Shown: piece by piece, positions 7,485-26,743 of the stretch
Position numbering within the stretch: position 1 is the stretch's first letter
Layout of the letters: each line of letters begins with the position of its first letter
Origin: a virus
Strand: one strand, 5' to 3'
Length of the DNA: 64,000 nucleotides
Virus record (IMG/VR): IMGVR_UViG_3300046692_000069
Span: 6,358-70,357 of that record
The notes under the pieces: generated by a model
Told to the model about the DNA's origin: nothing
The model's database searches: none
The model's input: the letters and a program-made list of their open reading frames with translations, nothing else
Translations under genes and position numbers: made by a program

Positions 7485-7868
7485 ATGCACAAGATATACG
7501 GATGGACTGACGAAGTTACGGCTTGCGACTGCTGCGGCAAGTCTGATCTCTCGGGAACGTTCTGCGTAGAGCTTGAGGATGGCGCGCAGCTTCATTACGG
7601 CTCGACATGCGTCAAGCGTAACACCGGCATTAAGAACCCAAAGACGGCTGCCTCTCAGTTCGAGAATGAGCGCTCTGCTGCTGCTCGCAAGGAATACATT
7701 GAGTCGCCAGAGTGGCGCGCGTACTTCGCAAGGCAAGAGGCCGGTCATAAAGCCGGTATCGTGCCGGGAAAGGCATTCAAGGAATACATGCATGATGTCG
7801 CTGAGGCTGATGCCGCTCTTAAGCGCAGTCTCGCGGAGAAGTACAGAATTCCCACTTATAGAGTTTAA
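7485..7868 (+). CDS. hypothetical Cys-containing early protein
   Basis: CDCCGK...HYGSTC; AAAGGAGA RBS; own promoter at 7431. Confidence 0.75.
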   Translation: MHKIYGWTDEVTACDCCGKSDLSGTFCVELEDGAQLHYGSTCVKRNTGIKNPKTAASQFENERSAAARKEYIESPEWRAYFARQEAGHKAGIVPGKAFKEYMHDVAEADAALKRSLAEKYRIPTYRV

Positions 7869-10844: not shown

Positions 10845-11170
10845 CCTATCCATGTGTGCCCGTGCCCGTGTGCGAGGCGCTGTGTGCGCAGACCTATCCA
10901 TGCCCACCCATCCCCTATCTATCGGCCGCGCGCCTACCCATGCTCATGGGTCCATGCGCCTATGCCCCGTGCATGGCCGTGGGTGGGCGTTGTGGTGTGG
11001 TCGCGCCATCGGTCGCGGTGATCGGGGATGGCGCCCTATAGCCCCTCTGTGTGGTCGTGTGGGGCCGTCCATGCCCGTGCCTATGGCTGGCGCATCGAGT
11101 CGACACATCCATGCCAATCCACAGCGATTCGGGCATCAGACCCGCCCCACCCATCGTACCATGCCCCTCG
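10845..11170. repeat. degenerate CCATG(C/T) repeat tract upstream of the packaging region
   Basis: CCATGY at 10850, 10898, 10938, 10952, 11069, 11109, 11159, often as CCTATCCATG or CCATGCCC. Confidence 0.5.
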
Positions 11171-11284
11171 AGTCGAGTCAATAGGTCGAAAAAGGAAAAT
11201 ATTTTCGTTTTTTCTCGAAAAAAGGTCATTTATTCCCGATTTATGGGTTGACACGCAAAACGAATCGTGATAGACTGGAAGGTT

Positions 11285-11370
11285 GCCCTAGGGGGGGGAT
11301 TCGAAGGTTTGGGGCTTTTTTGCCATCGGGTACCGGCGGGGGGCCTTCGTACACGCATCTGCTTTTTAAA
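11285..11370. other. putative cos/packaging site
   Basis: G-run, then GGGTACCGGCGGGGGGCC, then an AT-rich tract immediately upstream of terS; layout typical of HK97-like cos phages. Confidence 0.45.
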
Positions 11371-11495
11371 ATATAGGGGTTTGTATTAAAATATTTAAAT
11401 TTTTTAAATTATTTGCATATATATTAGTATTATATTCGCATATTGACATGACGGCCCCTATGGTAATATCTGGAGTACGAAAGGAGCTTCGTATT

Positions 11496-11891
11496 ATGGC
11501 AAGACCGCGTAAACCTCTAGCTTTGGCAAAGATTGAGGGGCGGGACAAGGTGAACGCAGGCCGGTTTAGAGGACGCAATGAGCCATCCGTAAACACGCCC
11601 GTAGGCGACCCCCCACCCTACATCATGGATACAGAGGAAAACAAGGCTCGAAGCGCATGGTACGAATACGCCATGGAACTTCCATGGTTAAACGCTTCTC
11701 ATAGGTCGCTCCTTGAGATGGCGTCGCTCATACGTGGTGAAGTGATGGCGGGCAGGCTACCCGGTATCCAGCGCTTAAACCTACTAAGGCAATGCTTAGG
11801 CTCCATGGGAGCAACCCCCGCAGATGCGTCCAAAGTAGGCGCGGGTGGAAATGACGACAACAAAGATCCGGAAGACGCATTTTTTGAATGA
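11496..11891 (+). CDS. terS: terminase small subunit (P27-like)
   Basis: MARPRKP..K..G..PP..L..AW..LPWL..MGATPADASKV; directly upstream of terL. Confidence 0.85.
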   Translation: MARPRKPLALAKIEGRDKVNAGRFRGRNEPSVNTPVGDPPPYIMDTEENKARSAWYEYAMELPWLNASHRSLLEMASLIRGEVMAGRLPGIQRLNLLRQCLGSMGATPADASKVGAGGNDDNKDPEDAFFE

Positions 11892-11897
11892 TGGGAG

Positions 11898-14081
11898 TTG
11901 ACAGTGGTAGATAAGCAGATAGAAGATACGGAAAACCCATCCATTGAAATTGCGGCGAAGACTCGTACGAAAAAACAACCCGCAACCGCACAGACGAAGG
12001 AGAAGACGGCTAATGTTAAATCGCGCCGCACAAGCCGCAAAGGAAGCGGCGGGAAGACAGGAGAGACGAAACGAACTGTTCGCAATGGATCGAGCGCTAG
12101 AGTGTCAGTGGAAGGGAAGGTTGCTGAGCAACCGATTCGGAAGCTCAACGCATTGGAGCGCGCTACTGCCTATGCGGATGCGGTACTGGCTGGCGACATC
12201 ATTGCCGGCCCTCATGTGCGAAACGCTTGTCGTCGGTTCCATGATGACCTTGCTCATGGCCGGGAACGCGGTATCTACTTTAACGTAGAGAAGGCCCAAC
12301 GGGTATTTGACTTCTTTGAGCAGATGCTTAAGCTTTCTGACGGTCAATTTGAAGGAAAGCCGCTAATACTTGCGCCATCTCAGGCGTTTAAGATCGCCAA
12401 TCTTTTCGGATTTATGCAGGTTCCAAAGGATGCCGATGGTAATTTCGTGTGGGAACCGGGAAGGCGCGCGGCGCTAGGATTGTTTGAACGCAGGCGGTTC
12501 AGGCGCGCCTATATTGAAGAAGGCAAAGGCAACGGTAAGTCCCCGCTCGCTGGCGGTATTGGTCTTTATGGGCTAATGGGTGACGGCGAAGGAAGTTCGC
12601 AGATCTACGCGGCGGCCGCCAAGAAGGATCAGGCGAACATTCTATTCCATGATGCCTGCAAGATGGTGCGGGCCGCACCATCACTGTTGAAGCGCATCAA
12701 GTTTTCCGGCTCTCCCGGCAAAGAGCACAATATGGCATTCCTCCGAAAGGGAGCGTTCTTTCGACCTATCTCGCGCGAGGCGGGGAAATCTGGCTCTGGG
12801 CCCCGCCCTCTTTTTGCGCTCTGCGATGAAGTGCACGAACATCCCGACCGCACCATTATGGAAATGCTAGAGCGTGGCTTTAAGTTTCGTGTATCACCCC
12901 TCCTGCTGATGATCACGAATAGCGGGACGGATAAGCAATCAATTTGCTGGGAAGAGCATGAGTGGGCGTGCAAGGTTGCGGCGGGAACCAAGACGCCAGA
13001 TGAGAATTTTACTTACACGGGAGAGCCAATTGACGACGTTACCTTCAGCTACGTTTGCGCTCTTGATATTGGGGATGATCCCCTCACGGATAGCTCTTGC
13101 TGGGTAAAAGCAAATCCAATGCTTAACATCATCCTTAGCGAGGAATACCTTGCGGGGGTTGTTAAGCAGGCTGTAGACATGCCAGGTAAGCGCAATGGCA
13201 TTCTTCGTCTTCACTTTTGCGTCTGGACGGATTCCGTCGATGCGTGGATGGGTAAGGAGATCGTTGATAGGGCGATGGAGCATTTCGACCCTTACGAGAT
13301 CCACAAGGAGAAGGAAGTTGCGGCCTCTATCGACTTGTCAGCTAGTCGAGATTTGACGGCAGCGGCTTTTGTCGTTGAAACTGGAGAGGTTGAAGTAGAG
13401 CGGCAACTGCAAGATGGCAGCGTAGAAATTAAGACGCTGCCGACGTATGATGCATGGATAGAGGCATGGACTCCGAAAGACACAATGGTCAAGCGAGAGT
13501 CTGAGGACCATCAGCCGTACTTGTTTTGGTCGCAAACCAATCACGTAGGATCTGAAAACCAGCCATATCTAAGGGCGCTGCCGGGTGAGCGAATTCGACA
13601 TGATTATCTTGCTGGATTCTTTCAGGACGTTGATTCAAAATTTAAGATACTAGGTATCGCATATGACAGATACCAATACGACAAGTTCCGTGAGGAGTGT
13701 GATGACAGGGGTCTTGACTTGCGCCACGTCGCCCATCCGCAGGGCGGGAAGTTTAGGGCGAAGCCGGACCCAATCGAAGTTGAGGCTGCGAAGGCGAATA
13801 AAGAAGAGCCGCCGCTTGGCCTCTGGATGCCCGGAAGTATCAAGGCGCTAGAGGATGCGTTTACGGACGGACGAATTAGACTTAGATTTAGCCCGGTTCT
13901 TATGTCGGCGCTAATGGGTGCGACGCTTTCGCCTCCCGATGACCATGGAAATAAGTGGTTCATCAAATCGAAAGCAACCGTCCGTATCGACCCGGCTGTG
14001 GCTTTGGCTATGGCGTTCGGGTTGATGCAGGACAAGCCACGGAAGAAGAAGCCTAAACAATTTCAGCTCATGGTTTTTTGA
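11898..14081 (+). CDS. terL: terminase large subunit (Terminase_1, HK97/cos type)
   Basis: Walker A GKGNGKS, Walker B LCDEVHEH, WVKANP, nuclease DLSASRDLTA, YDRY, IDPAVAL; start may be GTG at 11904. Confidence 0.95.
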   Translation: MTVVDKQIEDTENPSIEIAAKTRTKKQPATAQTKEKTANVKSRRTSRKGSGGKTGETKRTVRNGSSARVSVEGKVAEQPIRKLNALERATAYADAVLAGDIIAGPHVRNACRRFHDDLAHGRERGIYFNVEKAQRVFDFFEQMLKLSDGQFEGKPLILAPSQAFKIANLFGFMQVPKDADGNFVWEPGRRAALGLFERRRFRRAYIEEGKGNGKSPLAGGIGLYGLMGDGEGSSQIYAAAAKKDQANILFHDACKMVRAAPSLLKRIKFSGSPGKEHNMAFLRKGAFFRPISREAGKSGSGPRPLFALCDEVHEHPDRTIMEMLERGFKFRVSPLLLMITNSGTDKQSICWEEHEWACKVAAGTKTPDENFTYTGEPIDDVTFSYVCALDIGDDPLTDSSCWVKANPMLNIILSEEYLAGVVKQAVDMPGKRNGILRLHFCVWTDSVDAWMGKEIVDRAMEHFDPYEIHKEKEVAASIDLSASRDLTAAAFVVETGEVEVERQLQDGSVEIKTLPTYDAWIEAWTPKDTMVKRESEDHQPYLFWSQTNHVGSENQPYLRALPGERIRHDYLAGFFQDVDSKFKILGIAYDRYQYDKFREECDDRGLDLRHVAHPQGGKFRAKPDPIEVEAAKANKEEPPLGLWMPGSIKALEDAFTDGRIRLRFSPVLMSALMGATLSPPDDHGNKWFIKSKATVRIDPAVALAMAFGLMQDKPRKKKPKQFQLMVF

Positions 14082-14173
14082 TCTGGGTAGAGTTGATAAG
14101 AAAGACGACAAGTTTAGATATAGTTGCTGGGTAGGGTTATCCTTAGCCAGCGCCCGATAAGAAAGGGTTTTGA

Positions 14174-16144
14174 ATGGAAAACAGAATTGCGTTTTCCTTT
14201 CTTAGCGTTGATAAGGCCATTGATACAATCGGCAACGAACGTATCATCAGCGGCATGGCAACGACCCCGACCCCTGATAGGGTTGGCGACATTGTTGAGC
14301 CGTTGGGCGTGATCTTCAAGAATCCTCTTCCGCTGCTTTTGTGGCATGATCATTCCGCCCCAGTCGGTACGGTCGTATTCGGTAAGCCTACAGAGAACGG
14401 TATTCCGTACACTGCTAAGCTTCCCGTAGTTCAGGAAGAAGGAAAATTAAAAGATCGCGTTGATGAGGCTTGGCAGAGCGTTAAGTTAGGTCTTGTACGG
14501 GCTGTATCGATTGGCTTCAGGCCGTTGAAATACAGCATCATCGACGGCGGCGGTTTGCAGTTTACGTCAACCGAAGTTTTCGAGCTTTCGCTTGTAACCG
14601 TTCCGGCAAATGTTGAGGCGACGATTGACTTTGTTAAGTCTCTCGACAACGAAGCAAGAGCAAAGGCATCGGCCAAGAGCAAAACAAAGGCGGCGCCTGC
14701 CGTGGTCAATAAGACCGTAAAGGGTGGCGTTAGCATCATCAATGTCAAAAAGGAGACAAGCTTGGATTTTCTCGAAACCATCAAGAATTTCAAGGACACC
14801 ATCACCGCAAAGAACGCTCGTCTTGACGAACTGCTTGCCAAGTCCACCGAAGCAACGCTTTCCGTTGAAGAAGGCGAAGAGCACGACGGCCTGATTACGG
14901 AAATCGGCGAAATCGAAAAGCACATTGAGCGTCTCGAAGCCGGCGCCGCTCGCGCCAAGGCCGCTGCCATTCCCGTCAATGGCAATACCGCCAAGTCCGG
15001 CACTGAAGCCCGTCAGGGCAAGGTTGCTGCTACTGCCAAGGCTGGCCAGCTTGAAAAGGGCATCAGCTTTGCGCAATGGACCATCGCGATTGCAATGGGT
15101 AAGGGCAACATCAACGCTGCTCAGTCCATCGCCGCAAACCGCTTCCCGAACAACGAAGAGCTGAACGGCGCCATGAAGGCCGCTGTTTCGGCCGGCACCA
15201 CGACCGACCCAACTTGGGCCGCTCCTCTGGTCGACACCTACCAGCGCTTTGCCGGTGACTTCGTTGAGTTCCTGCGTCCGGCCACCATCATCGGCAAGTT
15301 TGGTACGAACGGCATCCCGTCGCTCCGCGCCATTCCGTTCAACGTCTCGATTGCTGGTCAGACCTCTGGCGGTTCCGCTCAGTGGGTTGGTGAAGGTCAG
15401 GCAAAGCCACTCACGAAGTTCGATTTCAATCTTACCAATCTCCGTTGGGCCAAGGTTGCGACGATTTCGGTTCTGACTGAAGAGCTGATCCGCTTCTCCA
15501 ATCCGGCCGCTGAAGCGCTTGTTCGTGACTCGCTCCGTGATGCTATCGTGGCTCGCCTCGATATCGACTTTGTCGACCCCGCCAAGGCAGCCGTTACCGA
15601 CGTGTCCCCGGCCTCGATCACCAACGGCGTTGTGCCGATTGCGTCTTCGGGTGTTGATGCCAATGCTGTCCGCGCAGACGTTAAGGCAATCTTCACGGCC
15701 TTCATCAATGCCGGCAAGTCGCCTACTCAGGGCGTCTGGATTATGTCTGAAGTTACGGCCCTCTCGCTGTCGCTGATGCAGAATCCGCTTGGTCAGCCAG
15801 AGTTTGCCGGCGTCACCGTTACCGGTGGCACGTTCCACGGGCTCCCGGTCATTACGTCGCAGTACATCGGCAACGACATCGTTGTTCTGGCTGATGCGTC
15901 GGAAATCTACCTTGCCGACGACGGTCAGGTTGCGGTTGACGTTTCCCGTGAAGCCTCGCTTCAGATGGACTCGGCTCCGACCGGCAACTCCGGTACGCCG
16001 ACCGCTGCGAACCTCGTTTCGCTGTGGCAGACCAACAGCGTGGCCATCCGTGCCGAGCGTTGGATCAACTGGCAGAAGCGCCGCGCATTCGCGGTTCAGG
16101 TTCTGTCCGGTGTCAACTGGGGCGCTGTCGCTATCGGCTCGTAA
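14174..16144 (+). CDS. prohead protease-major capsid protein fusion (HK97 fold)
   Basis: Protease motifs DRVGDIV, LLWHDH, SIGF, ELSLVTVPAN; capsid motifs WVGEGQAKP, GLPVITS, LWQTNSVAIRAE. Confidence 0.95.
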   Translation: MENRIAFSFLSVDKAIDTIGNERIISGMATTPTPDRVGDIVEPLGVIFKNPLPLLLWHDHSAPVGTVVFGKPTENGIPYTAKLPVVQEEGKLKDRVDEAWQSVKLGLVRAVSIGFRPLKYSIIDGGGLQFTSTEVFELSLVTVPANVEATIDFVKSLDNEARAKASAKSKTKAAPAVVNKTVKGGVSIINVKKETSLDFLETIKNFKDTITAKNARLDELLAKSTEATLSVEEGEEHDGLITEIGEIEKHIERLEAGAARAKAAAIPVNGNTAKSGTEARQGKVAATAKAGQLEKGISFAQWTIAIAMGKGNINAAQSIAANRFPNNEELNGAMKAAVSAGTTTDPTWAAPLVDTYQRFAGDFVEFLRPATIIGKFGTNGIPSLRAIPFNVSIAGQTSGGSAQWVGEGQAKPLTKFDFNLTNLRWAKVATISVLTEELIRFSNPAAEALVRDSLRDAIVARLDIDFVDPAKAAVTDVSPASITNGVVPIASSGVDANAVRADVKAIFTAFINAGKSPTQGVWIMSEVTALSLSLMQNPLGQPEFAGVTVTGGTFHGLPVITSQYIGNDIVVLADASEIYLADDGQVAVDVSREASLQMDSAPTGNSGTPTAANLVSLWQTNSVAIRAERWINWQKRRAFAVQVLSGVNWGAVAIGS

Positions 16145-16165
16145 TATCTAGCCGGTAAAGTCGCA

Positions 16166-16194
16166 TTGACTTAAAGGGCTGGGAGCTGTAATAT
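16166..16194 (+). promoter_or_regulatory. putative promoter for the glycosyltransferase genes, overlapping the capsid terminator
   Basis: TTGACT-N17-TAATAT. Confidence 0.5.
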
Positions 16195-16212
16195 GCTCTC
16201 AGCCCTTTTTTT
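16173..16212 (+). terminator. Rho-independent terminator after the capsid gene
   Basis: AAAGGGCTGGGAGC-TGTAATAT-GCTCTCAGCCCTTT followed by further Ts. Confidence 0.8.
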
Positions 16213-16228
16213 ATTAACGGAGGTATGC

Positions 16229-17698
16229 TTGGCTAAGGTTATTATTGACGGCGTTGAATACGCGCCCGTTTCCAGCGTGTCGGCGGCCAAGATTGGCATT
16301 GTGATAACTACGCATAATCGGCACGATGTACTTAAGCGTTCGCTAGAGCATCATCTCCAGCACCTTCCGACCGGCGCAGTTGTCTTCGTTGTTGACGACG
16401 GCTCCGCCGCTCCTGTGTCAGTTGACGACAGTCGAGTAACGGTCGTTCGCAACGAAAGGAGCATGGGAATCGTCTACTCTAAAAACAGGTCGTTGTCCCT
16501 ACTCATGGATGCGGGATGCGATCACCTTTTTCTGTGGGATGACGATGCGTACCCACTCACGAACGATTGGCATGTGCAATATGTCGAAAGCGGAGAGGCA
16601 CATCTCGCCTATCAGTTCCTAGATCTAGCCGGCCCTAGAAAGCTAAAGGACATTGCCGTCATTCATCGCGATTCGAAGCATGTTGCCTATACGGGTCAGC
16701 GCGGAGTTATGCTCTATTACAAGCGCCACGCCATCGATAAAGTTGGTGGTTTTGATTCGATATACGGACGCGGGATGTATGAGCATTCCGATTTGGCGAT
16801 GCGAATTTATCAGTCCGGCCTAAACTCTTGGGCTTTTGCTGATGTCGTCGGCTCAAATGAGCTTATCCACTCGATGGATGAGCACGAAGAGGTGGAGCGT
16901 TCTGTTGCCATGGGTGATCGTCAAGCCCTTGTGGATCGAAACGTTAAGGTGCACAACGCGCGGCGGGATAATGGTTATTCAGGTTATGCTCCTTATGACG
17001 TGAAGCCCAACGTCGTATTGACGTCTTTTCTTACGTGTCATCCCGATCCGCAACGTGGCATCCGCATGGAAGCAAAGGCTTCGATGCTGTCGGAGTGGTC
17101 AAGCAGCATTAAGGGCGCCGCTGCCATTGTGTTGGCTGATGAGCTTGACGAAAATCCGCCCTACGCATCCAGAGTAAAGGTTGACTCTCTGGAGGGAAAC
17201 GTATATTTCATTAGGTGGCTGCATGTGTACAATTGGCTCCGGAGCAATCCTAGCGTTGGCAAGGTGTTTGTCACCGATGGGACTGACGTTGTCATGCTTC
17301 GTGAGCCTTGGGAGCATATGACATCAGGTAGCCTATACGTCGGCTCAGAGGCCAAGACTCTCGATGACGCATGGATTACGTCTAATCACGCGGCATCGCA
17401 TTTGAAGGCGTTCCTAGAGGCCAATAAGGGCAAGACAATGCTGAATGCCGGCATCGTTGGCGGCGACAGAGAAGATGTCATGGCGTTCGCGCACGATATC
17501 ATCAAGGACTACTATTTCACCATATCGCGCCGGTTCTGGAAAACGGAGCCGCAGGGCAATGAGGTTGGGGACATGGCGACGTTTAATTACGTGGCCTATA
17601 CCAAGTGGGCCAATAAGATCATGACTGGTCCTCTAGTACATACCGTGTTTAAGACTGAGGGCGTAGGCAAGGAATATGCTTGGTTTCGCCACAAGTAA
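16229..17698 (+). CDS. two-domain glycosyltransferase (N-terminal GT2 plus second GT-A-like domain)
   Basis: IVITTHNR, VVDDGS, FLWDDD, VGGFD..Y..EHSDL; second domain VTDGTDV..LNAGIVGG..DMATFN; GGAGG RBS before TTG at 16229. Confidence 0.9.
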   Translation: MAKVIIDGVEYAPVSSVSAAKIGIVITTHNRHDVLKRSLEHHLQHLPTGAVVFVVDDGSAAPVSVDDSRVTVVRNERSMGIVYSKNRSLSLLMDAGCDHLFLWDDDAYPLTNDWHVQYVESGEAHLAYQFLDLAGPRKLKDIAVIHRDSKHVAYTGQRGVMLYYKRHAIDKVGGFDSIYGRGMYEHSDLAMRIYQSGLNSWAFADVVGSNELIHSMDEHEEVERSVAMGDRQALVDRNVKVHNARRDNGYSGYAPYDVKPNVVLTSFLTCHPDPQRGIRMEAKASMLSEWSSSIKGAAAIVLADELDENPPYASRVKVDSLEGNVYFIRWLHVYNWLRSNPSVGKVFVTDGTDVVMLREPWEHMTSGSLYVGSEAKTLDDAWITSNHAASHLKAFLEANKGKTMLNAGIVGGDREDVMAFAHDIIKDYYFTISRRFWKTEPQGNEVGDMATFNYVAYTKWANKIMTGPLVHTVFKTEGVGKEYAWFRHK

Positions 17699-17710
17699 AA
17701 GGATGAAGAC

Positions 17711-18313
17711 ATGAATACATTATATGCAGTCGTCGCCCATCATTCGCGCGAGAAACAAGCCCTAGAACTGTGTTGCGCTCTAGGCGCTGAGCTGTTTATG
17801 GACGGCGGCAACGGTGGCGCGCTGGCCAATCATCGGCGCGCTATCCAGTGGGCCGCAAAGCAACGTGAGCGCGTTGTGATTCTTGAGGATGATGCGCAGC
17901 CGGTTATTGGTTTTAAGTTCAAGGTTGACGAATGGTTAGAATGCTATCCGCATAACCTTATCAGCTTTTATCTAGGAACTGGCCGCCCGCCCCAATTTCA
18001 ACCGTTGATTAACGAATCGATATCGCTGGCTGACATAAGCGGCTCCAGCGTAATATATTTGCCGCAATTGTTGCACGGTGTTTGCTACTCCATCCCTCAA
18101 AGTTGGATAACTCACATCGCCGCGCAACTTCCAGAGCGTGGCGTTGCCGCTGATTACGCCATCGGCGACGCATGGCGCCGTGTTACTGGTGGCGTGGGCG
18201 TCGTTTATCCGATCAGGTCCCTTGTCGACCACGAAGACGGCCAAAGCGTGGAGCGACACCCTGATGGACAACCAAGAACAGAACGCCGCAAGGCTTGGCG
18301 GCTAGACAACTGA
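17711..18313 (+). CDS. glycosyltransferase (GT-A, GT25-like)
   Basis: NHRRA..VVILEDDA, HGVCYS, ADYAI, SLVDH. Confidence 0.8.
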   Translation: MNTLYAVVAHHSREKQALELCCALGAELFMDGGNGGALANHRRAIQWAAKQRERVVILEDDAQPVIGFKFKVDEWLECYPHNLISFYLGTGRPPQFQPLINESISLADISGSSVIYLPQLLHGVCYSIPQSWITHIAAQLPERGVAADYAIGDAWRRVTGGVGVVYPIRSLVDHEDGQSVERHPDGQPRTERRKAWRLDN

Positions 18314-18324
18314 AGGAGAAAAGT

Positions 18325-18627
18325 GTGCAGGTTTCAATTGAATTCATAAAGGACTATGGTCACTACAAGGTTGGCGATATCCTCTCCATTCCGGATGGAC
18401 AGGCAAAGGTTTTGCGGTTGCTGGGATATGCCATCCACAAAGAGCCGCAGAGGGCCGTAGAGGCTGTTTCCGTGGCCGAGCAACCGGTTGCCGCCAATGA
18501 GGCCCCAGAGCGCGACATTGAGGCTCTGCGGGCCGAATACTTGGCCATTACAGGCGAGCGCGTGCACCACAAGCTTGGTGCCGAGAAGATTGCATTGAAG
18601 ATTGAGGAACTAAAGGCCGGTAACTAG
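18325..18627 (+). CDS. small head-region protein
   Basis: YKVGDI..A..L..LGYA N-terminus and helical LRAEY..ITG..HHKLG C-terminus; AAGGAGA RBS. Confidence 0.7.
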   Translation: MQVSIEFIKDYGHYKVGDILSIPDGQAKVLRLLGYAIHKEPQRAVEAVSVAEQPVAANEAPERDIEALRAEYLAITGERVHHKLGAEKIALKIEELKAGN

Positions 18628-18705
18628 TTGAGTCGCTTGCCGTCGAAGCTAGATATCAGGCGCGGGGGTTCGTCTCTCGCGCCTTTCCTTTTAGAGGAGC
18701 AAAAC

Positions 18706-20115
18706 ATGAGTGAAAGAAGCGGCTTTATTCGCCGCCTTAAGAGAATTACGTCTGGCTTGCTTTCCCCGCCTTCTTCGCGCGGTGGATGGCTTGGCCCCAT
18801 ACTGGAATCTTATCCCGGTGCGTGGCAGCAGAACGTTGAGATTTCCAACGACACACTAACGTCTGTTGGCGCTGTATTCGCGTGCGTTACGCTTATCGCT
18901 TCGGACATTTCAAAGCTTCGAATGAAGCTGACAAAATTCACGAACGGCGCGTGGGTGGAGGCCACTAATACGGCCTACTCGCCAATGCTGAAGCGGCCAA
19001 ATAAAAACCAGAATAGAATCCAATTCCTTGAGGCTTGGATTTTGTCGAAGTTGCTTCACGGCAATACCTATGTACTAAAGGTGCGGGATGCCACGGGTCA
19101 CGTTCGCGGCCTAAAGGTTCTTGATCCGCGTCTAGTGCAGCCGCTGGTTTCGCCAGACGGAAGCGTGTTCTATAGCATCAACACGGACAATTTTAACGGC
19201 ATTCAAGATCCGCCAGAAGCTATTCCGGCTAGCGAGATCATTCATGATCGTTACAATTGCCTGTTCCATCCACTCGTTGGGATTTCGCCGCTCTATTCGG
19301 CTGGCCTAGCGGCTCGTCAGGCATGGCATATCCAGAATAGCCAAACCCTGTTGTTTGCCAACGGCGTTAAGGCCCCCGGCATCCTTACGGCTCCGGGCGC
19401 CATCAGCGACGAAATCGCTGAGCGACTCAAGACTGATTGGGAAGCCAAATATGCTGGCTCCAAGGGTATTGGCAAAGTCGCCGTGCTTGGCGATGGACTA
19501 GAATTCCAAGCGATGTCTACAAGCGCCGTCGATGCCGAGCTTATCAAACAGCTTGATTGGACCGGTATTTCCATCTGTTCTGCCTTCCACGTCCCGCCAT
19601 TTATGATTGGCATTGGTTCGGCCCCGCCGTATACCGACATGGCGTCGGTTAACCTTCAGTACTATTCGCAGGCTCTACAGCACCTCATTGAGGCCGTCGA
19701 GCTTTGTGTTGATGAAGGCGTTGGCTTGGCGGATGACATGGGTGTCGAGCTTGACACGAATGGCTTGCTTCGCATGGATGCCAAGACTCAGGCTGAAACG
19801 ATCACAACTTACACCAAGTCCGGCATCATGAAGCTGAATGAGGCGCGTCGGAAGATTGATCTTCCTGATATGGATGGCGGCGATTCCGTTTACCTCCAGC
19901 AACAGAACTTCAGTCTTGAGGCGCTGAATAAGCGCGACAGCTCAGATGATCCGTTCAAGACTGGCGGCAGCTCGAAAACCACACAGCCGTCGTCGTCGCA
20001 GACTACGGACCCTCAAAAGTCTATCCGTAAGTCAATTGAGCGCAGCGAGGATGATGCGATTGAGTATCTGTCCATTCTCGTAAACAAGATGGAAGGATTC
20101 GAACTTGAATATTGA
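18706..20115 (+). CDS. portal protein (HK97 family)
   Basis: AVFACVTLIASDISKL, LLHGNTY, EIIHDR, GISPL, FANG..PGIL, AFHVPP, NEARR..LP..GGD. Confidence 0.95.
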   Translation: MSERSGFIRRLKRITSGLLSPPSSRGGWLGPILESYPGAWQQNVEISNDTLTSVGAVFACVTLIASDISKLRMKLTKFTNGAWVEATNTAYSPMLKRPNKNQNRIQFLEAWILSKLLHGNTYVLKVRDATGHVRGLKVLDPRLVQPLVSPDGSVFYSINTDNFNGIQDPPEAIPASEIIHDRYNCLFHPLVGISPLYSAGLAARQAWHIQNSQTLLFANGVKAPGILTAPGAISDEIAERLKTDWEAKYAGSKGIGKVAVLGDGLEFQAMSTSAVDAELIKQLDWTGISICSAFHVPPFMIGIGSAPPYTDMASVNLQYYSQALQHLIEAVELCVDEGVGLADDMGVELDTNGLLRMDAKTQAETITTYTKSGIMKLNEARRKIDLPDMDGGDSVYLQQQNFSLEALNKRDSSDDPFKTGGSSKTTQPSSSQTTDPQKSIRKSIERSEDDAIEYLSILVNKMEGFELEY

Positions 20116-21409
20116 AACCATTAAAAAGCTTGAAGATGTATTCTCCAAGCTGACAAATCACGTCAAGGCAGCGTTGCAGCCAATGGCGCAAGAGCTTCGT
20201 GATATGAAGGCGTCGATTGCAAGCGTCGTCAAGCATCAAGAAGATTTCAAGGCTGAAATCAAGTCGTCTGACTCGATTTTTCGCGATGAGATCACGGCCA
20301 TTGAATTGGTTGCTCATGATGCCACGGCGACAGCGAAAGACGCCAAGGAAACTGCAGAAGCAGCCGTCCAGCTTTGGCATGATCACGAATCCGGATGGAA
20401 TAAAAAGTTCGATAGTGCCGTGCAGCATTATGCCGATACGTCCAGCGGCGTGATCAAGGATGTATTGCCTCATGAGCTTGGCCACGAAGTTAAGCTGATC
20501 GGTGGGAAGTCGTTTGTTATTAAGAACGGCGTCGATGGCAAAGACGGGGAAAAAGGCGCGGATGGCATCAACGGAGATAACGGCGTCGATGGCAAAGATG
20601 GCAAAGATGGCGACAATGGCGTCGGAATCGTAGCTATTGACCTTGCTCAGGCCGATGACGACGTCACGATTGCGGGCCTTCTTTCGAATGGCGAGACATT
20701 CTCTTTGCCTTTCCGGATTAAGAGCGGTATTGACGGCGAAGATGGCCGTGACGGTATCGACGGCATTCGCGGCATTGATGGGGTTAATGGCGTCGACGGA
20801 TCCGATGGCAAAGACGGGCGGGATGGCATCGACGGCAAGGACGGACGCGATGGCGTGGATGGCAAGGATGGATCTGACGTTGTTGATGGCTTCATCGACA
20901 GAGACAACAATCTTGTCCTAACTTTCGCCAACGGCAAGGCAAAAACCCTTGGTGTGGTGGTAGGTCGCGGCGGCGAAAAAGGCAAAGATGGCCATAACGG
21001 CGCCGATGGCTTCGACGGCAAGGACGGCCGCGACGGCGCGGACGGCAAGGATGGCTTTGGCCTTGATGATCTGAGCATGGAGCACGATGGCGAGCGCGGA
21101 TTCTCATTCGTATTTCGCTCTGGCGATCTTGAGAGGCGCTTTGATTTCCGCCTTCAGGTTCCTATCTATCGCGGTGTGTACGGCGCTGGTAAGGCGTACG
21201 AGTCTGGAGACATGGTTTCTCACTTCGGCGCCGTATACCACTTCAATGGTGGCGACAAGGCTCCGGGAATTGATACATCTTGGACGCTTGCGGTTGCCAA
21301 TGGCCAACGCGGCAAGACTGGCGCCAAGGGTGATAATGGCAAACCGGGTAACGACGGCCGCGACGGTCGCGACCTTACCAAAATTATGCCAGATGGGAGT
21401 AAGTATTAA
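20105..21409 (+). CDS. collagen-like (G-X-Y repeat) head-region protein
   Basis: Blocks of GKDG/GRDG/GIDG repeats; C-terminal YRGVY..Y..GD.V..WTLAV..G. Confidence 0.85.
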   Translation: MNIETIKKLEDVFSKLTNHVKAALQPMAQELRDMKASIASVVKHQEDFKAEIKSSDSIFRDEITAIELVAHDATATAKDAKETAEAAVQLWHDHESGWNKKFDSAVQHYADTSSGVIKDVLPHELGHEVKLIGGKSFVIKNGVDGKDGEKGADGINGDNGVDGKDGKDGDNGVGIVAIDLAQADDDVTIAGLLSNGETFSLPFRIKSGIDGEDGRDGIDGIRGIDGVNGVDGSDGKDGRDGIDGKDGRDGVDGKDGSDVVDGFIDRDNNLVLTFANGKAKTLGVVVGRGGEKGKDGHNGADGFDGKDGRDGADGKDGFGLDDLSMEHDGERGFSFVFRSGDLERRFDFRLQVPIYRGVYGAGKAYESGDMVSHFGAVYHFNGGDKAPGIDTSWTLAVANGQRGKTGAKGDNGKPGNDGRDGRDLTKIMPDGSKY

Positions 21410-21735
21410 TGGCTGCTGACCCTATTGATATCATCACGCTTGAGGAGGCGAAGCGCAGGCTTCGCATTCTTCATGACGACGAAGACGAATCGATACAGGA
21501 TATGATTACAGACGCCAGCGCCGCCATTGTCGACTACATCAAGCTTGATGATGCGGCTATTGTGTTGCTGTCGCCCATTCAAAGCCGCTGCTTGCGGGCC
21601 GCATGCCAGAACATGGTGAAATGGCTCTATAATGACAAGGACAATACAACATCGTATACCCGCGCGGCCCTTGGGTATCTTCCCGACTCGGTTACTATGA
21701 CACTGCATCGAATCCGCAAGCCGTCGATGGCCTAG
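21409..21735 (+). CDS. head-tail connector (gp6-like)
   Basis: ITLEEAKRRLRI.HDDED..I..AS..IVDY. Confidence 0.85.
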   Translation: MAADPIDIITLEEAKRRLRILHDDEDESIQDMITDASAAIVDYIKLDDAAIVLLSPIQSRCLRAACQNMVKWLYNDKDNTTSYTRAALGYLPDSVTMTLHRIRKPSMA

Positions 21736-21920
21736 TGTGGGTTCGATTTGACAAGGGGTTCTCATGGATGCCAGCAAAGAACTTTTGCATAGACTTCCGT
21801 GAGGGCTCCATTCAGTTCGTAAAGCGTGATTGCTTTGCGGCTGCGAAGAGGGCGGGCGTAATAACCCGCCTAAAACGTAATCGATATGGAAATTTTACGG
21901 AGGTTGATGATGACGCCTAG
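21735..21920 (+). CDS. small hypothetical virion-region protein
   Basis: Coupled ORF WVRF..F.W.P. Confidence 0.6.
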   Translation: MWVRFDKGFSWMPAKNFCIDFREGSIQFVKRDCFAAAKRAGVITRLKRNRYGNFTEVDDDA

Positions 21921-22254
21921 CGGTAGATTTTTGCTGAAGTTTCAGCAGCGTGCGGAAGACGATGACGGCTTTGGCAATGTCATGCGCGGCGGAGATTTCG
22001 AGGATGTCTTCACGTCTTACGCCACTGTAACGCCTTTGCGGCCCGGAAGTGAGGCAGTTATCAATGCTTCGCTTACTGGCATTCAGCCATTGACCGTTAG
22101 CATCCCATCGCACTCAAAAGCGCGCATGGTCGACAACGCTTGGCGGGCAATCAACGTTCGTACTGGCGTTATCTACAATATCGCATCGGCAGTTGACTCC
22201 AACGGCGCTAACGCGACAATTGATATCACGATGACATCAGGGACATCTCCATAA
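21910..22254 (+). CDS. head closure protein
   Basis: FQQR..DDGFGN..EAV..L.G.QP..WRA..YNI; synteny. Confidence 0.8.
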   Translation: MTPSGRFLLKFQQRAEDDDGFGNVMRGGDFEDVFTSYATVTPLRPGSEAVINASLTGIQPLTVSIPSHSKARMVDNAWRAINVRTGVIYNIASAVDSNGANATIDITMTSGTSP

Positions 22255-22796
22255 TGGCGTGGAAAGTAAACATCAAGGGACTTGAGCAACTGAAGAAAAA
22301 GGTTGCGGCACTTCCAGCTGCCACCCGAAACGAAATAGCTGACGCAATGGCTAAGGGTGCGGGTGAGATGGTTGATTTCGCTCAATCCCTCGCGCCACAC
22401 AAGACGTTACAAGACTCAATCGGCTGGTCATGGGGCGATCTACCGAAAGGCAAGCGTTCTCTAGGCACGTTCGGACGCGGTGGGTTTACCAAGTCAAGCG
22501 GAGGAAGCGCGGCCAAGGGGTCGGGAACTAAAGACGATCTACTCATTACGGTTTACGCCGGCGATGACGAAGCATTTTATGCGCGGTGGGTAGAGTTTGG
22601 CACAAAGCCGCATAGCTTGGCAAAGGGCGCTATCCTCAAGCGAGGTAAAAAGCAGACTACGGGAATCCAGCATCCCGGCACAGCGGCAACTCCGTTCTTC
22701 TTTCCAGCCTACAGGGCGCTAAGGAAGCGCATCAATCAGCGGATAAGGCGAGCGATTAACAAAGCAGCGAAGCGCGTAGCGCAGGGCGGCAGATAG
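22254..22796 (+). CDS. HK97 gp10-like tail completion protein
   Basis: GLEQLKKK, AFYARWVEFGT, HPGT.A.PFFFPAY. Confidence 0.85.
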   Translation: MAWKVNIKGLEQLKKKVAALPAATRNEIADAMAKGAGEMVDFAQSLAPHKTLQDSIGWSWGDLPKGKRSLGTFGRGGFTKSSGGSAAKGSGTKDDLLITVYAGDDEAFYARWVEFGTKPHSLAKGAILKRGKKQTTGIQHPGTAATPFFFPAYRALRKRINQRIRRAINKAAKRVAQGGR

Positions 22797-22804
22797 GGGA
22801 TTGC

Positions 22805-23239
22805 ATGGCAGTATTTTCGCCAATGAATGCACTAAAGCAAGCAGCCACTTCGGCGATGAAGGCTGATTCAGATTTGCTTGGTATAGTTACGGGTGGCATC
22901 TACGACCGGGCACCGGCTAACACTCAGTACCCCATGATATCGATGGAGTCATCATTTGCCGTTGATGGCTCCTATGAATGCAATGATGACTCGGTTGAAA
23001 TAACTCTGCAAATTGCCGTTTGGGACTATTCCCCAGAAAGCGGCTCAAAGTCATACAACACATTCAACGCTTCGGAGGCGTCTTTTCTTGTCAAGCGTGC
23101 CATTATGACGCTTGATGGTGCTCAGCTTACTCCGGATTGGCGCGTTGTTAGTGTCCAGTACAGGACAACGAGAAATATTACGGCAAGCGATGGCGTCACC
23201 ACTCAGAGCGTCAACACGTTCATTGTCATCGTAGAGTAG
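22805..23239 (+). CDS. tail terminator (DUF3168-like)
   Basis: GGIYDRAP..YP.I; synteny. Confidence 0.75.
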   Translation: MAVFSPMNALKQAATSAMKADSDLLGIVTGGIYDRAPANTQYPMISMESSFAVDGSYECNDDSVEITLQIAVWDYSPESGSKSYNTFNASEASFLVKRAIMTLDGAQLTPDWRVVSVQYRTTRNITASDGVTTQSVNTFIVIVE

Positions 23240-23321
23240 GAGTCCCTATGGGCGTTGATACATAGTTCTTAAGAGCAATATCTGAAACTGCACAGTATTG
23301 AAATTTCCAAAGGAGAAAAGT

Positions 23322-23771
23322 ATGGCAAAGCCGGTAACTATTCGTTTCGGCATGTTCGCAGTGATGCTAGGCAACGTGGCGACTCCGGGAGTTTACGCCG
23401 CGCCTTGCGGCTTCACTTCCAAGTCCCTTCAGCTCACGAAGGAACTTAACGAGGTAACTATTCCCGACTGCGATGACCCTGATGCGGTTGCTTGGATTGG
23501 CCGTGATGCGGCGTCTCTGTCGGCGCAGGTATCGGGCGAGGGTGTCCTTGCGCAAGAGGCCGTTGACACTTGGCTGGCCGCGCAGGAGAGCATTGATTCG
23601 ATTCCCATCAAGATTGTTCTGTCCTTCCCCGCCAAGACTGTTACGTGGACGGGCCTTGCTCATGTGTCCGACTTGACCATTACGGGCGAACTTGGCCAGC
23701 GGGTGACTATGAATGTTACCATTCAGAGTGATGGCGAGCTTGTTCGCGTTTCCGCGCCGGTTGGTTCGTAA
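23322..23771 (+). CDS. major tail tube protein (GTA-like)
   Basis: APCGFTSKS..IPDCDDPD..W..SGEGV..QSDGE; ends in APVGS. Confidence 0.9.
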   Translation: MAKPVTIRFGMFAVMLGNVATPGVYAAPCGFTSKSLQLTKELNEVTIPDCDDPDAVAWIGRDAASLSAQVSGEGVLAQEAVDTWLAAQESIDSIPIKIVLSFPAKTVTWTGLAHVSDLTITGELGQRVTMNVTIQSDGELVRVSAPVGS

Positions 23772-23779
23772 TTACACTG

Positions 23780-23814
23780 GCAGCACTCGGCATTCGTGCT
23801 GGGTGCTGCTTTTA
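23780..23814 (+). terminator. Rho-independent terminator with UUCG loop
   Basis: GCAGCACTCGGCA-TTCG-TGCTGGGTGCTGC-TTTT. Confidence 0.8.
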
Positions 23815-23831
23815 ACTGAAGGGATAGGCAT

Positions 23832-24410
23832 ATGAGAAGTGGACATTTGGAGGCGGAATTTGCAGATGGTGAATACGTCTTTAAGTTGGGATGGGGTCAG
23901 CTAGTTGAGCTGCAAGAAAAGTGCAACATTGGGCCGCACGCACTGCTTAGGCGCCTTGAGGCTGGCCTATGGATGGTTGATGACATCGCTGAAACGATTA
24001 GGCTCGCGCTAATCGGTGGCGACCCAGTCAACATGCAGCCGATCAAGGCAAAGAAGCTAGTTGAGCGCTACGTCAAGGATAGGCCGCTTACTGAAAACAT
24101 TTCGTTGGTGCGCGTAATTCTTATGGTCGCGCTGTTTGGGGGCGAATCCGTAGAGCCTGTCGACCAGAAGAAGAAGACGGAAGAAACGTCGAGGGCCGTT
24201 GCCGATGAAGATGGAAAGATGAATTTCCAAGATCTTTACGGCATTGGTGCCGTGCTTGGATATACACCAGCGCAGGTTAACGAGATGTCGGTTTGGCAAC
24301 TGATGGTCGCGTATAACGGCTACGCCAAGGCGAATACCCCAGATGATGGATCGACCATCACGGAGGAGGAGGCGAAAGACCTCTATGAATTCGTTCAGAA
24401 TATTGAGTAA
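23832..24410 (+). CDS. tail assembly chaperone (GTA-gp10-like, G and T parts in one frame)
   Basis: FADGEY.FKLG..L.ELQEKC..GP..W..DD..E.IRL.LIGG, then LYG.GAVLG.TP.QV..MS.WQ; lies between tail tube and TMP. Confidence 0.8.
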   Translation: MRSGHLEAEFADGEYVFKLGWGQLVELQEKCNIGPHALLRRLEAGLWMVDDIAETIRLALIGGDPVNMQPIKAKKLVERYVKDRPLTENISLVRVILMVALFGGESVEPVDQKKKTEETSRAVADEDGKMNFQDLYGIGAVLGYTPAQVNEMSVWQLMVAYNGYAKANTPDDGSTITEEEAKDLYEFVQNIE

Positions 24411-24514
24411 TAACTAATCTTAATAAGGCGCAAGTTGATGCCTGACCGATAATTGCTAATTCAGTGGTATCGGGCTGCACGCATGCGCCTTTTTCACTTT
24501 AGAATGGAGAGAAC

Positions 24515-26743
24515 ATGGCGGCAACAGACCTAGAGAGATTGGTGGTTCAGTTGTCCGCCGACATGAAGCAGTACCAAAACGCCATGGATAAGGCGGTTGG
24601 GCTGACCGACAAGAGCACCAAGAAGATTCAGAAGCAATTCGAATCCATGGCGTCTAAAGTTAACTCTTCATTCGCCTCCATTGGCGCGAAGGGACTTGGT
24701 CTTGCTGCCGGCGCCGTTGGCACTGACAAGCTGATCGAGTTCGCCGACAGCTACACCAGAATTCAAAACTCCCTAAAGGTTGCCGGCCTTCAGGGAGATG
24801 AGCTTACCGCTACATTTGGAAAGCTTTATGATATTGCCCTGAAGAATCACGCGCCCATTGAGGCGCTTGCTTCGCTTTATGGCAGGGCTGCGCTTCAAGC
24901 TAAGGCTCTCGGCGCATCCAATGCGGACCTAATCAAGTTTACCGATTCCGTTGCTACATCGCTCAGAGTTAGCGGTACTTCCGCCTCTGAGGCTGGAGGC
25001 GCGCTACTTCAGCTTGGTCAGTCACTTGGTACGGGCCGCGTTATGGCCGAAGAATTCAATTCGGTCCTTGAAGGTATGCCAGCCCTCGCGCTTGCCGCTG
25101 CCCGTCGCATCAAGGACGCTAATGGTAGCGTTGGCGAGCTTAAGGCTCTTGTGTCCAACGGCAAGGTTTCGTCCCGCGCCTTGTTTGATGCCATCATTCT
25201 TGCCAATCAAGATATTCAGAAGCAGGCTGAGCTTACGAGCATCACGATTAGCGGCGCGATGACCGACTTGAGCACGTCGCTAATTAAAGCAGTTGGCGAG
25301 TTCGATGATACGACAGGCGCATCTGATGCGCTCGCTAAAGCAATTAGCGCGATTGCAGAGCAGATCGGCCCTCTTGGTCAGCTATTCGCCGATACGTGGC
25401 AAACTCTAAGTAGCATGGACCTAGGGACGTTCGCAGAGAATTGGTGGACTATTTCAACGGCCCTACATGGCGCCGCTGATGGCTTCAATGAGCTTAATAA
25501 GCAGGCTAATATAGCTGGTCAGGGTCTCAATAGCGCAATCAAGGATACGTACTCAGAATTCAAGAATGCTTGGTTTACATCCGTTGAAGATCAGCAAAAG
25601 GCCATCACGGATAGAAACGCCAAGGAGGCTAAGTCAGCTGAGATTGCGGCTGTATACGGTGCGCAAGTAAAGGAAAATGCAGACGCCATCACGAAGATGA
25701 ACAAGGCCGCGTCAGATGCGGGTGGCGGCATGGGAGTTGGACAGTTCGGGCCGGCTATACCGGCTGGGCGCGGCAAGTCTCAGGGGCCAAACAACGCCAA
25801 CACTATTAAGCCAACTCCTGTTGATGATCGGCAGATTAACCTTAGTGATTACAAGGTTCCCGGCGCGAAGGACAAGAAGGCAACCAAAGACAAGCAGGAC
25901 GCCTACGAAAAGGCGACGAAGTCCGTTCAAGACCGCATCAACGTCATGACGGCCGAGACGGCAGCGCAATCAAAGCTTAATCCGCTAGTCGATGATTATG
26001 GATTCGCCGTTGCTAAAGCTAAGACGCAGCAAGAGCTGTTGAATGCCGCTGAAAAGGCAAAGAAGGCCATTACGCCAGAGCTTACGGCGCAGATCGAGGC
26101 GCAGGCCACAGCCTACGCAAACGCAACGGTAAATGCAGCCAAGCTCAATGAAGAGCAAGAGCGCATGAAGAAGATGCAGCAAGACATCTCCGATACGGCA
26201 AAGGACGTAACGCAGGGCATCGTGCAGGGATTCATCCAAGGCAAGAGCGCGGCTGAGGTGTTTTCTGGCGCGCTTCAGAAGGTTGCAGACAAGCTGCTGA
26301 ATTTGGCTTTTGATCAGCTCTTTGATCCGACAAGCAAAGGAGGCATGGGGCTTGGCGGCGGATTCGCCAAACTGTTCGGTTTCGCGGCTGGTGGCTATAC
26401 CGGCTACGGTAACAAGGATGATCCGGCCGGCATCGTCCACAAGGGTGAATACGTTATCCCGGCCGATAAGGTCAAGAAGATGGGCGTACCGAACATCGAG
26501 CGCATGATTGGCTACGCCAACGGCGGTCCTGTCGGTATACCTAGCATGTCGCGCCTTGCTGGGTCCGGAGTTGGTAGTGGCGGCCTAAGCATCAACTACG
26601 CCCCATCATACGATAATCGTGGGGTCGACAACGAGAGGCTTGCTAAGCTAGAGCAAATCCAAGCCAAGGACAGGGCGGAGTTTAGCGCTCGCGTTGTCAA
26701 TTCTGTTCGCAAGGCAAAAAGCAGTAACGTGAAGGGAGTCTGA
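24515..26743 (+). CDS. tape measure protein
   Basis: MAATDLERLVVQLSAD, tape-measure N domain (QLGQSL..G..EEFNSVLE), FAAGGYTG..AGIVHKGEYV. Confidence 0.95.
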   Translation: MAATDLERLVVQLSADMKQYQNAMDKAVGLTDKSTKKIQKQFESMASKVNSSFASIGAKGLGLAAGAVGTDKLIEFADSYTRIQNSLKVAGLQGDELTATFGKLYDIALKNHAPIEALASLYGRAALQAKALGASNADLIKFTDSVATSLRVSGTSASEAGGALLQLGQSLGTGRVMAEEFNSVLEGMPALALAAARRIKDANGSVGELKALVSNGKVSSRALFDAIILANQDIQKQAELTSITISGAMTDLSTSLIKAVGEFDDTTGASDALAKAISAIAEQIGPLGQLFADTWQTLSSMDLGTFAENWWTISTALHGAADGFNELNKQANIAGQGLNSAIKDTYSEFKNAWFTSVEDQQKAITDRNAKEAKSAEIAAVYGAQVKENADAITKMNKAASDAGGGMGVGQFGPAIPAGRGKSQGPNNANTIKPTPVDDRQINLSDYKVPGAKDKKATKDKQDAYEKATKSVQDRINVMTAETAAQSKLNPLVDDYGFAVAKAKTQQELLNAAEKAKKAITPELTAQIEAQATAYANATVNAAKLNEEQERMKKMQQDISDTAKDVTQGIVQGFIQGKSAAEVFSGALQKVADKLLNLAFDQLFDPTSKGGMGLGGGFAKLFGFAAGGYTGYGNKDDPAGIVHKGEYVIPADKVKKMGVPNIERMIGYANGGPVGIPSMSRLAGSGVGSGGLSINYAPSYDNRGVDNERLAKLEQIQAKDRAEFSARVVNSVRKAKSSNVKGV

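Follow-up and report, generated by a model that had tools for sequence, protein, structure and literature searches.

A putative virion O-glycosylation cassette in the head module of a probably rhizobial phage

Two glycosyltransferase genes behind a capsid gene

Which molecule is glycosylated by a phage that carries two glycosyltransferase (GT) genes in its head module? This question is raised by the DNA analysed here, a 64-kb stretch (referred to as the window) of a single 70,357-bp virus record (IMG/VR IMGVR_UViG_3300046692_000069). The two genes, named GTA and GTB in the following, are located between the capsid and the portal gene, and both the capsid and the tail tube protein end in Gly-Ser. 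A preliminary description, made from the sequence alone, had proposed that the two enzymes glycosylate capsid and tail tube, an interpretation supported by our comparative evidence. Based on homology, predicted folds, conservation of motifs, gene position and co-variation with a terminal serine, GTA and GTB probably constitute a virion O-glycosylation cassette. The genes of the region are all encoded on the + strand, and the elements concerned are:

14174-16144, +: fusion of prohead protease, scaffold and major capsid protein, 656 amino acids (aa); Pfam Peptidase_S78 (residues 53-155); phrog_617
16124-16141, +: C-terminal tail A-V-A-I-G-S of the capsid protein, past the conserved ...GVNWG end of the fold
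16139-16141, +: terminal serine of the capsid protein, proposed sugar acceptor
16173-16208, +: terminator-like hairpin of 14 pairs (8 G-C) followed by a T-run, between capsid stop and GTA start
16229-17698, +: GTA, 489 aa; phrog_1579
17711-18313, +: GTB, 200 aa; phrog_854
23298-23771, +: major tail (tube) protein, 157 aa from TTG 23298; PF06199, E 2.7e-15; phrog_1407, phrog_13196
23757-23768, +: C-terminal tail P-V-G-S of the tube protein
23766-23768, +: terminal serine of the tube protein, proposed second acceptor

The position of the GT genes between capsid and portal, already given in the preliminary description, was confirmed by the gene layout. Its "capsid" gene needs a correction: the designation is right for the C-terminal part, which is the mature capsid protein, and the gene as a whole encodes the fusion listed above (phrog_617 "major head protein", E 1.8e-153, residues 6-649). 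The capsid ends VNWGAVAIGS (codons GGC TCG TAA) and the tube VRVSAPVGS (GGT TCG TAA), exactly as described before. Only 4 of the 116 open reading frames (ORFs) obtained by greedy calling in the whole 70,357-bp record end in GS, namely capsid, tube and two ORFs of the early region. The latter (6182-7024, 280 aa, ending RRGS, and 7220-7468, 82 aa, ending HKGS) have neither a Pfam nor a PHROG match and their GS ends are probably coincidental; thereby the earlier statement that no further structural gene ends in GS stands. At a GS rate of about 2% among the other 114 ORFs, the chance of finding GS on both capsid and tube is about 4e-4.

Co-occurrence of GTB and a terminal serine

Capsid and tube genes were searched for in other loci by tblastn, with four capsids and six tubes as query panel, and the frames were read to the stop codon. 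Rows were kept if the alignment came within 15 residues of the query end (<=15), covered at least 60% of the query and was complete to the stop, and were dropped otherwise. The loci L005-L255 except L033 and L034 were covered, and each distinct tail of the last 40 residues was counted once. In loci carrying GTB, 43 of 44 capsids (34 GS, 8 TS, 1 NS) and 29 of 30 tubes (27 GS, 2 TS) end in serine, compared to 6/49 capsids and 11/75 tubes in loci without it. The corresponding raw counts are 103/104 and 70/72 with GTB, and 20/76 and 23/95 without. Fisher p values are 1e-18 for the capsid and 9e-16 for the tube, but overstate the evidence because the tails are related by descent and not phylogenetically independent. 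After single-linkage clustering of the capsids at 70% identity, a terminal serine was found in 5/6 clusters with GTB vs 2/24 without among the clusters with a uniform GT label (p 8e-4). In GT-bearing loci without a tube from the panel, ORFs of 150-175 aa ending in GS turned out to belong to a different major tail protein family, phrog_158, in 3/3 tested cases. The preliminary description had suggested comparing GT presence with C-terminal GS across related phages, and the strong co-variation found is what it predicted.

The only exception among the capsids of GTB-carrying loci is that of L062, a prophage of a Rhizobiaceae metagenome-assembled genome (MAG) with both GTs, which ends VVN. At this locus (6194-6655, 6668-7711, 12919-13383) GS is found on the head-decoration protein (phrog_766; NSGS) and on the major tail protein (LSGS); the outermost head protein is thus the one that bears the tag.

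The same pattern is seen in the capsid family of the window itself. Neither GT was found with any of 27 capsid relatives from viral contigs (38-66% identity over the aligned segment; three partial), and none of these 27 ends in serine. Their tails past ...NWG or AWG differ (QPETP, QPVVP, A, TP, DA, LDSGT, NGKYSG, AE, AP, VPGT, G and others). In GT-less relatives for which both genes are present, the portal match mostly follows a few hundred bases past the capsid; larger gaps of about 1.2-3.9 kb occur in L005, L014, L017 and L031. GTB was not detected in the whole records of the five nearest relatives (0/5; three of them at least 95% complete), with a positive control that matched. In a maximum-likelihood tree of 41 capsids, calculated after removal of the last 12 residues, the GT label changes three times (the window, the Rhizobiaceae prophage locus L040 and an enterobacterial clade of 15), and the terminal serine follows each change. 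The sister of the window is the GT-less L005 (the pair has support 91, the three-row set with L024 has 97).

The tubes behave likewise. GT-less tube relatives with 67-73% identity end VRVTTPTP or VRVETP, and GT-bearing ones VRVTTPAGS (L039) or RTSQPTGS (L165). RHph_X2_26, the Rhizobium phage whose capsid is nearest among isolates (55% identity), has no GT within the 17.5 kb examined; its capsid ends GTESV and its tube APIP.

The two enzymes

The whole of GTA is covered by a match to phrog_1579 (E 2.4e-208), and the N-terminal domain of GTA narrowly passes the gathering cut-off of PF00535 Glycos_transf_2 (23.9 bits, cut-off 23.3). Although the ORF opens at ATG 16193, translation likely begins at TTG 16229, 5 nucleotides (nt) 3' of GGAGG, because ATG 16193 falls inside the hairpin 16173-16208, and both the GGAGG spacing and the homologues, which begin at the site matching TTG 16229, fit the latter; this start had been assumed before. 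The AlphaFold model of GTA (20 homologues, predicted local distance difference test (pLDDT) 78) consists of two tandem GT-A domains. Searched with the whole chain, Foldseek matched the tandem GT-A enzymes heparosan synthase 2, K4 chondroitin polymerase (K4CP), COLGALT1 and LARGE1, and one of the domains aligns with GT6 alpha-1,3-galactosyltransferases. The GTA stop is 12 nt upstream of GTB.

GTB matches phrog_854 (E 2.5e-59) and no Pfam family. Its model (pLDDT 90) is a single minimal GT-A fold with 46 PDB matches at E<=1e-3, nearly all of them GT-A enzymes. The nearest solved structures are mimivirus R655, POMGnT1, COLGALT1, GnT-I, LH3 and ppGalNAc-T2, among which POMGnT1, COLGALT1, LH3 and ppGalNAc-T2 glycosylate proteins. 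A basic conserved stretch at the C-terminus (residues 170-200) is modelled with low confidence; within it R189 and R193 are invariant and E191 is nearly so.

The motifs named in the preliminary description are all present in the translations, DDGS and WDDD in the GT2-like N-terminal domain of GTA, TDGTDV in its C-terminal domain, LNAG and DMATFN also in GTA, and LEDDA in GTB. No substitutions occur across 20 homologues of GTA in DDGS, in the DDD of WDDD, in the TD-TDV core of TDGTDV, or at D104-D105-D106 and D350/D353; in GTB, E59, D61 and A62 of LEDDA are invariant across 17 homologues. Both ORFs are intact and share the catalytic-motif residues with relatives at 41-62% (GTA) and 53-88% (GTB) identity. 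The three transferase domains expected earlier are also borne out by the predicted folds, two in GTA and one in GTB.

A link to known virion glycosylation is provided by GTB, which aligns over its full length in BLASTP with gp110 of mycobacteriophage Che8 (34% identity over 195 residues, E 8e-25) and shows 32% identity to Corndog gp38 (E 4e-20). In a publication (PMC12363180) citing Freeman et al. 2023 (Cell Host Microbe 31:1216), Che8 gp110 and Corndog gp38 are named as essential transferases for capsid glycosylation. We propose that GTB is the initiating protein O-glycosyltransferase, and that GTA is a soluble enzyme which extends the glycan. Hydrophobic segments are absent from both proteins: the highest 19-residue Kyte-Doolittle means are 1.17 for GTA and 1.07 for GTB (usual membrane-helix level 1.6). 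A serotype-converting cassette of the Gtr type was considered for the gene pair and rejected, as both values are below 1.6, i.e. there is no integral-membrane GT, and the neighbours are capsid and portal genes.

Proposed mechanism

Late in infection, both soluble enzymes would work in the cytoplasm, where they would meet their substrates since neither has hydrophobic segments. GTB would use a nucleotide sugar to place the first sugar on the hydroxyl group of the very last residue, the serine ending a short flexible tail x-x-[G/T]-S-COOH on capsid and tube proteins. Its basic C-terminal stretch could close over the free carboxylate of the acceptor. In the most parsimonious reading, the initiating step falls to GTB, the component common to all versions of the system and, at the Methylophilaceae locus L085, the sole GT. 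GTA, which has two distinct GT-A active sites, would then extend the glycan; three transferase domains suggest at least a trisaccharide. As a result, the two most abundant proteins on the particle surface would be coated with sugar, and the hairpin behind the capsid gene would hold the enzymes sub-stoichiometric to their substrate. Order of action, acceptor atom, identity of the sugars and biological role (shielding or adsorption) are all inferred.

Alternative explanations

A different virion protein might be the substrate, the GS ends of capsid and tube then being incidental. The candidate is a collagen-repeat protein (20105-21409), whose gene lies 1.8 kb 3' of GTB; the folds near to GTB include the collagen galactosyltransferase COLGALT1, the GT domain of LH3 and mimivirus R655/R699. 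However, a homologue of the C-terminal part of this protein occurs in 19/28 related GT-less loci, and the serine ends of 43/44 capsids and 29/30 tubes across several unrelated families would be left unexplained, which makes this substrate improbable. The terminal-serine rule is equally unexplained if the phage DNA were the target, as in restriction-evading glucosylation of bases. This is suggested by the label "glucosyltransferase" of phrog_854 and by genes for a deoxynucleoside monophosphate (dNMP) phosphatase-like protein (phrog_318) and a DNA methyltransferase in the genome. Yet the homologues gp110 and gp38 are tied to capsid glycosylation, and no hydroxymethylase was found in the 38 window ORFs scanned against PHROGs, a genome annotation that is not exhaustive; we give DNA glucosylation hardly any weight.

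Both GT families are filed by PHROGs under "moron, auxiliary metabolic gene and host takeover", and the related cassette of lambdoid phages lies between the lysis genes and cos, where morons typically occur. Accordingly the enzymes might modify a host surface polysaccharide, O-antigen or other, and serve lysogenic conversion or superinfection exclusion in a Gtr-like manner. But the GTs of the window are placed within the head module behind the capsid gene, both lack hydrophobic segments, no flippase-like partner adjoins them, and the co-variation with the terminal serine would have no explanation. We therefore consider a host polysaccharide very improbable as the target. Just as doubtful is the view of the cassette as a passenger that is inactive or decaying, with GS ends left over from an ancestor. 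This could be argued from HK97, which keeps GS without GTs, but in the window both ORFs are intact with their catalytic motifs kept. Furthermore, the tags and the GTs appear together in this lineage, because its nearest GT-less relatives are without GS.

Several points nevertheless weigh against glycosylation of capsid and tube by GTA and GTB. GTA shows no significant similarity to Che8 gp108 and gp109 and is thus another enzyme than the ones studied in Che8; the earlier remark that both GTs resemble the Che8 set is valid for GTB (gp110, 34%) and fails for GTA. The evidence for the window and the other proteobacterial cassettes comes from genes and models. Many of the "GT-less" loci are fragments and some labels may be wrong: several fragmentary contigs (records 11-39% complete) have capsids or tubes ending in AS or GS and no GT in view. 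The GT-bearing L239 and L255 possess a tube with an extra Ig-like domain ending TVN. In the capsid tree there are only 2-3 independent contrasts, for which reason the sign test (p 0.5) cannot reach significance. Finally, a tblastn search of the whole HK97 genome revealed neither GT, and its capsid ends SSGS, its gp6 EEGS and its Ig-domain tube TIS. The cassette is present in 60/63 HK97-like capsid loci for which 7 kb or more 5' of the capsid gene are covered; of the three without GTs, two keep SSGS and one ends SAD.

The preliminary description had regarded GT-less relatives that keep the same GS termini as evidence against it. Such a relative is HK97 (SSGS), and there is none in the capsid family of the window (0/27). 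Evidently, a neutral tag can be kept in mosaic lambdoid genomes after the enzymes are gone, and GS without GTs is expected for HK97 if such a tag persists in mosaic lambdoid head modules.

The head-tail adaptor Ad1 of HK97-like phages (gp6; L033:5219-5545, homologues in L176-L255) ends in GS or TS, too (EEGS, ERGS, EETS). In the loci of the four EETS adaptors the capsids end in TS (2), NS (1) and GS (1), and every TS capsid has a TS adaptor. The HK97-like adaptor may be a third substrate of the cassette.

Genome context

The remaining features around the cassette are:

11898-14081, +: large terminase TerL
18295-18627, +: small ORF, 110 aa, between GTB and portal; weak PHROG matches only (E 1e-4)
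18628-20115, +: portal protein, downstream boundary of the GT insertion; PF04860, E 1.8e-79
20105-21409, +: collagen triple-helix repeat protein, 434 aa, overlapping the portal 3' end; PF01391, E 5e-21
21409-21735, +: adaptor, C-terminus PSMA

By tblastn, no match to the small ORF 18295-18627 was obtained among 28 related loci. The collagen-repeat protein is probably a head or neck fibre, and between its gene and the tail tube gene follow those for adaptor, neck and terminator proteins. For the tube protein, an ATG at residue 9 is an alternative start. A chaperone-like protein, tape measure, distal tail proteins, fibres, endolysin and replication genes are encoded 3' of the tube gene. An acetyltransferase-like gene (28024-28461; phrog_1249, E 1e-19) is part of the tail module, and RHph_X2_26 has an N-acyltransferase at the matching position.

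The hairpin 16173-16208 is the top-scoring terminator-like site within 11000-25000, a range with 19 such sites in total, which is not above the 16.3 +/- 3.8 of shuffled sequences. It probably sets the expression of the GTs far below that of the capsid. A second terminator-like hairpin (9 pairs, 23788-23808) directly 3' of the tube gene mirrors the one behind the capsid gene.

In a megablast search of a phage collection with the whole region no match was found. An alphaproteobacterial host, as assumed in the preliminary description, is plausible because the closest isolate by capsid is the Rhizobium phage RHph_X2_26; the host is probably of rhizobial type.

Other cargo and other matched C-termini

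Other genes are found at the site of the GTs in related phages. The 3.9-kb capsid-portal insertion of L005, the nearest relative, was checked for other GTs, which could be ruled out; it encodes GDSL/SGNH esterase-like proteins, one at L005:12395-13606 and the other, at 13705-15693, with 662 aa and a tail-tube domain (PF06199) fused to a GDSL-like part. RHph_X2_26 has an SGNH hydrolase at the capsid-portal gap (L258:6032-7246). Genes for carbohydrate-active proteins seem to be inserted preferentially at this gap.

In many GT-less tube relatives, capsid and tube both end in proline after Thr, Ala or Val. This applies e.g. for L097/L005, L121, L153, L171, L175, L110, L131, L144 and L145. Distinct capsid-tube pairs without GTB comprise 5 TP/TP, 4 AP/TP and 1 VP/VP, a second matched C-terminal tag. 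A GT2 enzyme was found in 0/5 records with TP on capsid and tube. Phage BP-4795 has Gly-Gly at both C-termini: its capsid, which belongs to the fusion family of the window capsid (49% identity), finishes with SASGG and its major tail subunit with GAGG (L259:8950-10887, 15242-16087); there is no GT in the 20 kb examined.

Distribution of the cassette

By tblastn, GTB matched 718 phage records. Mycobacterium phages account for 661 of them, and phages of Escherichia, Enterobacteria, Cronobacter, Salmonella, Aeromonas, Klebsiella and Serratia were matched as well, with 48-55% identity. A protein search yielded 1476 relatives of GTB, and the named ones in the best 120 are mostly from Enterobacterales, plus Brucella, Xanthomonas and Sodalis. 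Enterobacterales also provided most of the 58 loci obtained in a scan of species-representative genomes; the others belong to a Rhizobiaceae MAG (3 loci), Martelella, Pseudomonas, Luteimonas, a Methylophilaceae MAG and Dietzia. GTA is directly upstream of GTB in nearly all 58 loci. In the Methylophilaceae locus L085, with GTB as its only GT, the capsid ends DGS. Enterobacterial and rhizobial prophages commonly carry the GTA-GTB cassette, as do lambdoid E. coli phages such as mEp390. When complete E. coli genomes were searched by megablast with the cassette of phage mEp390, 7/5426 were matched, none covering at least 80% of the query; at the sensitivity of megablast the cassette is therefore rare in E. 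coli.

For the phage's own lineage, a scan of GTDB genomes with the window capsid protein revealed no relative, and a metagenome scan with GTB a single 2-kb contig with 35% identity. A second GT-bearing member of this lineage was thus not found, leaving aside L096, a 10-kb fragment with a tube 82% identical to that of the window and ending TGS, which is too incomplete for its GT status to be read.

The preliminary description knew of no demonstration of such a system outside actinobacteriophages. Our literature search, which covered papers apart from their supplements, found nothing to contradict this, i.e. no report of this cassette in virion glycosylation outside that group. To our knowledge, virion glycosylation has been shown only for mycobacteriophages. 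The abstract of the Che8 study reportedly states that there is little evidence of glycosylation across the broader phage population. The later reviews consulted cite only Freeman 2023 on phage virion glycosylation. In another publication (PMC12894461), ten phages were stained, none was glycosylated and no glycosyltransferase is mentioned; the cassette status of these ten was unchecked here.

The proposed initiating enzyme and the terminal-serine tag recur in phages of Alpha-, Beta- and Gammaproteobacteria, including lambdoid E. coli phages, which are readily grown in any laboratory. Virion sugar coating probably occurs in phages of Gram-negative bacteria, too. If so, a simple sequence rule would be at hand to predict sugar-coated phage particles, and a short peptide tag together with an enzyme pair for site-specific protein glycosylation in E. 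coli. Moreover, a further variable would have to be considered in phage adsorption, stability and immune recognition. A bolder version, which we regard as rather unlikely, is that the C-terminal [G/T]-Ser-COOH is a portable glycosylation tag crossing phyla, recognised by the gp110-family enzyme and put on abundant outward proteins, and that GTA, in the manner of the tandem GT-A co-polymerases which it resembles, builds a long chain of repeating disaccharides. The tag would be carried by capsid and tail tube, by the decoration protein where one exists (L062) and, among HK97-like phages, by the gp6 adaptor as well. If the polymerase part were true, many phages of Gram-negative bacteria would bear a so far unnoticed, capsule-like polysaccharide coat.

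Comparison with known systems

The cassette belongs to a kind of system already known from the phages Che8, Corndog and Myrna. Its nearest relatives by sequence are the lambdoid and enterobacterial cassettes, whose GTA and GTB are 56-59% and 50-55% identical to those of the window. Carriers are mEp390 (gp54/gp56), HK542, HK633, ECP1, SaltyDalty, Cronobacter phage ENT47670 and many prophages of Enterobacter, Pantoea and Erwinia. Their capsids and tubes end in GS or TS, comparable to the GS of the window. Unlike the window cassette with its site in the head module, they are usually found between the lysis genes and cos, and the GTs are annotated merely as glycosyl- or glucosyltransferase or as hypothetical protein.

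Che8 and Rita are glycosylated according to one genome announcement. The gp108-gp110 system of Che8 resembles that of the window in the gp110 homologue, in several GT activities side by side and in GS on both capsid (KTGS) and major tail protein (SDGS). The Che8 study reportedly placed the O-glycan on the C-terminal residue. In contrast, the Che8 cassette is located at the right genome end and not between the capsid and portal genes, its capsid is a separate protein of 273 aa and not a protease-capsid fusion, its partner enzymes gp108/gp109 are unlike GTA and its host belongs to another phylum.

The two-domain GT of many other cluster F mycobacteriophages is 43-45% identical to GTA over 97-98% of the length. 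Sparkdehlily, Boomer and Emma possess both enzymes (GTB about 35% identical) in the order of the window, GTA then GTB (Sparkdehlily GTA 53546-54973, GTB 55183-55761). These cassettes differ in their actinobacterial host and, again, in the position at the right genome end.

In Corndog the GTs gp35-gp38 are part of the head module as in the window, lying between the portal and protease genes. They are four small genes without a two-domain GTA, and only gp38 matched the query panel. From position and size, gp41 is likely the capsid and gp49 the tail protein. The former ends LVGS like the capsid of the window, whereas the latter ends KGDS, with GDS unlike the tube of the window.

Outside phages, the predicted fold of GTA aligns over the full length with Pasteurella heparosan synthase 2, E. 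coli K4 chondroitin polymerase and LARGE1 (E 2e-11 to 4e-7). It differs from the two-domain GT-A polymerases in sequence, with just 9-14% identity, and the TM-scores of about 0.24-0.36 are low because the relative placement of the domains differs. New here is a homologous system in a phage of a Gram-negative, probably rhizobial host, which combines a proposed initiating enzyme related to Che8 gp110 with a different candidate extending enzyme and a location in the head module.

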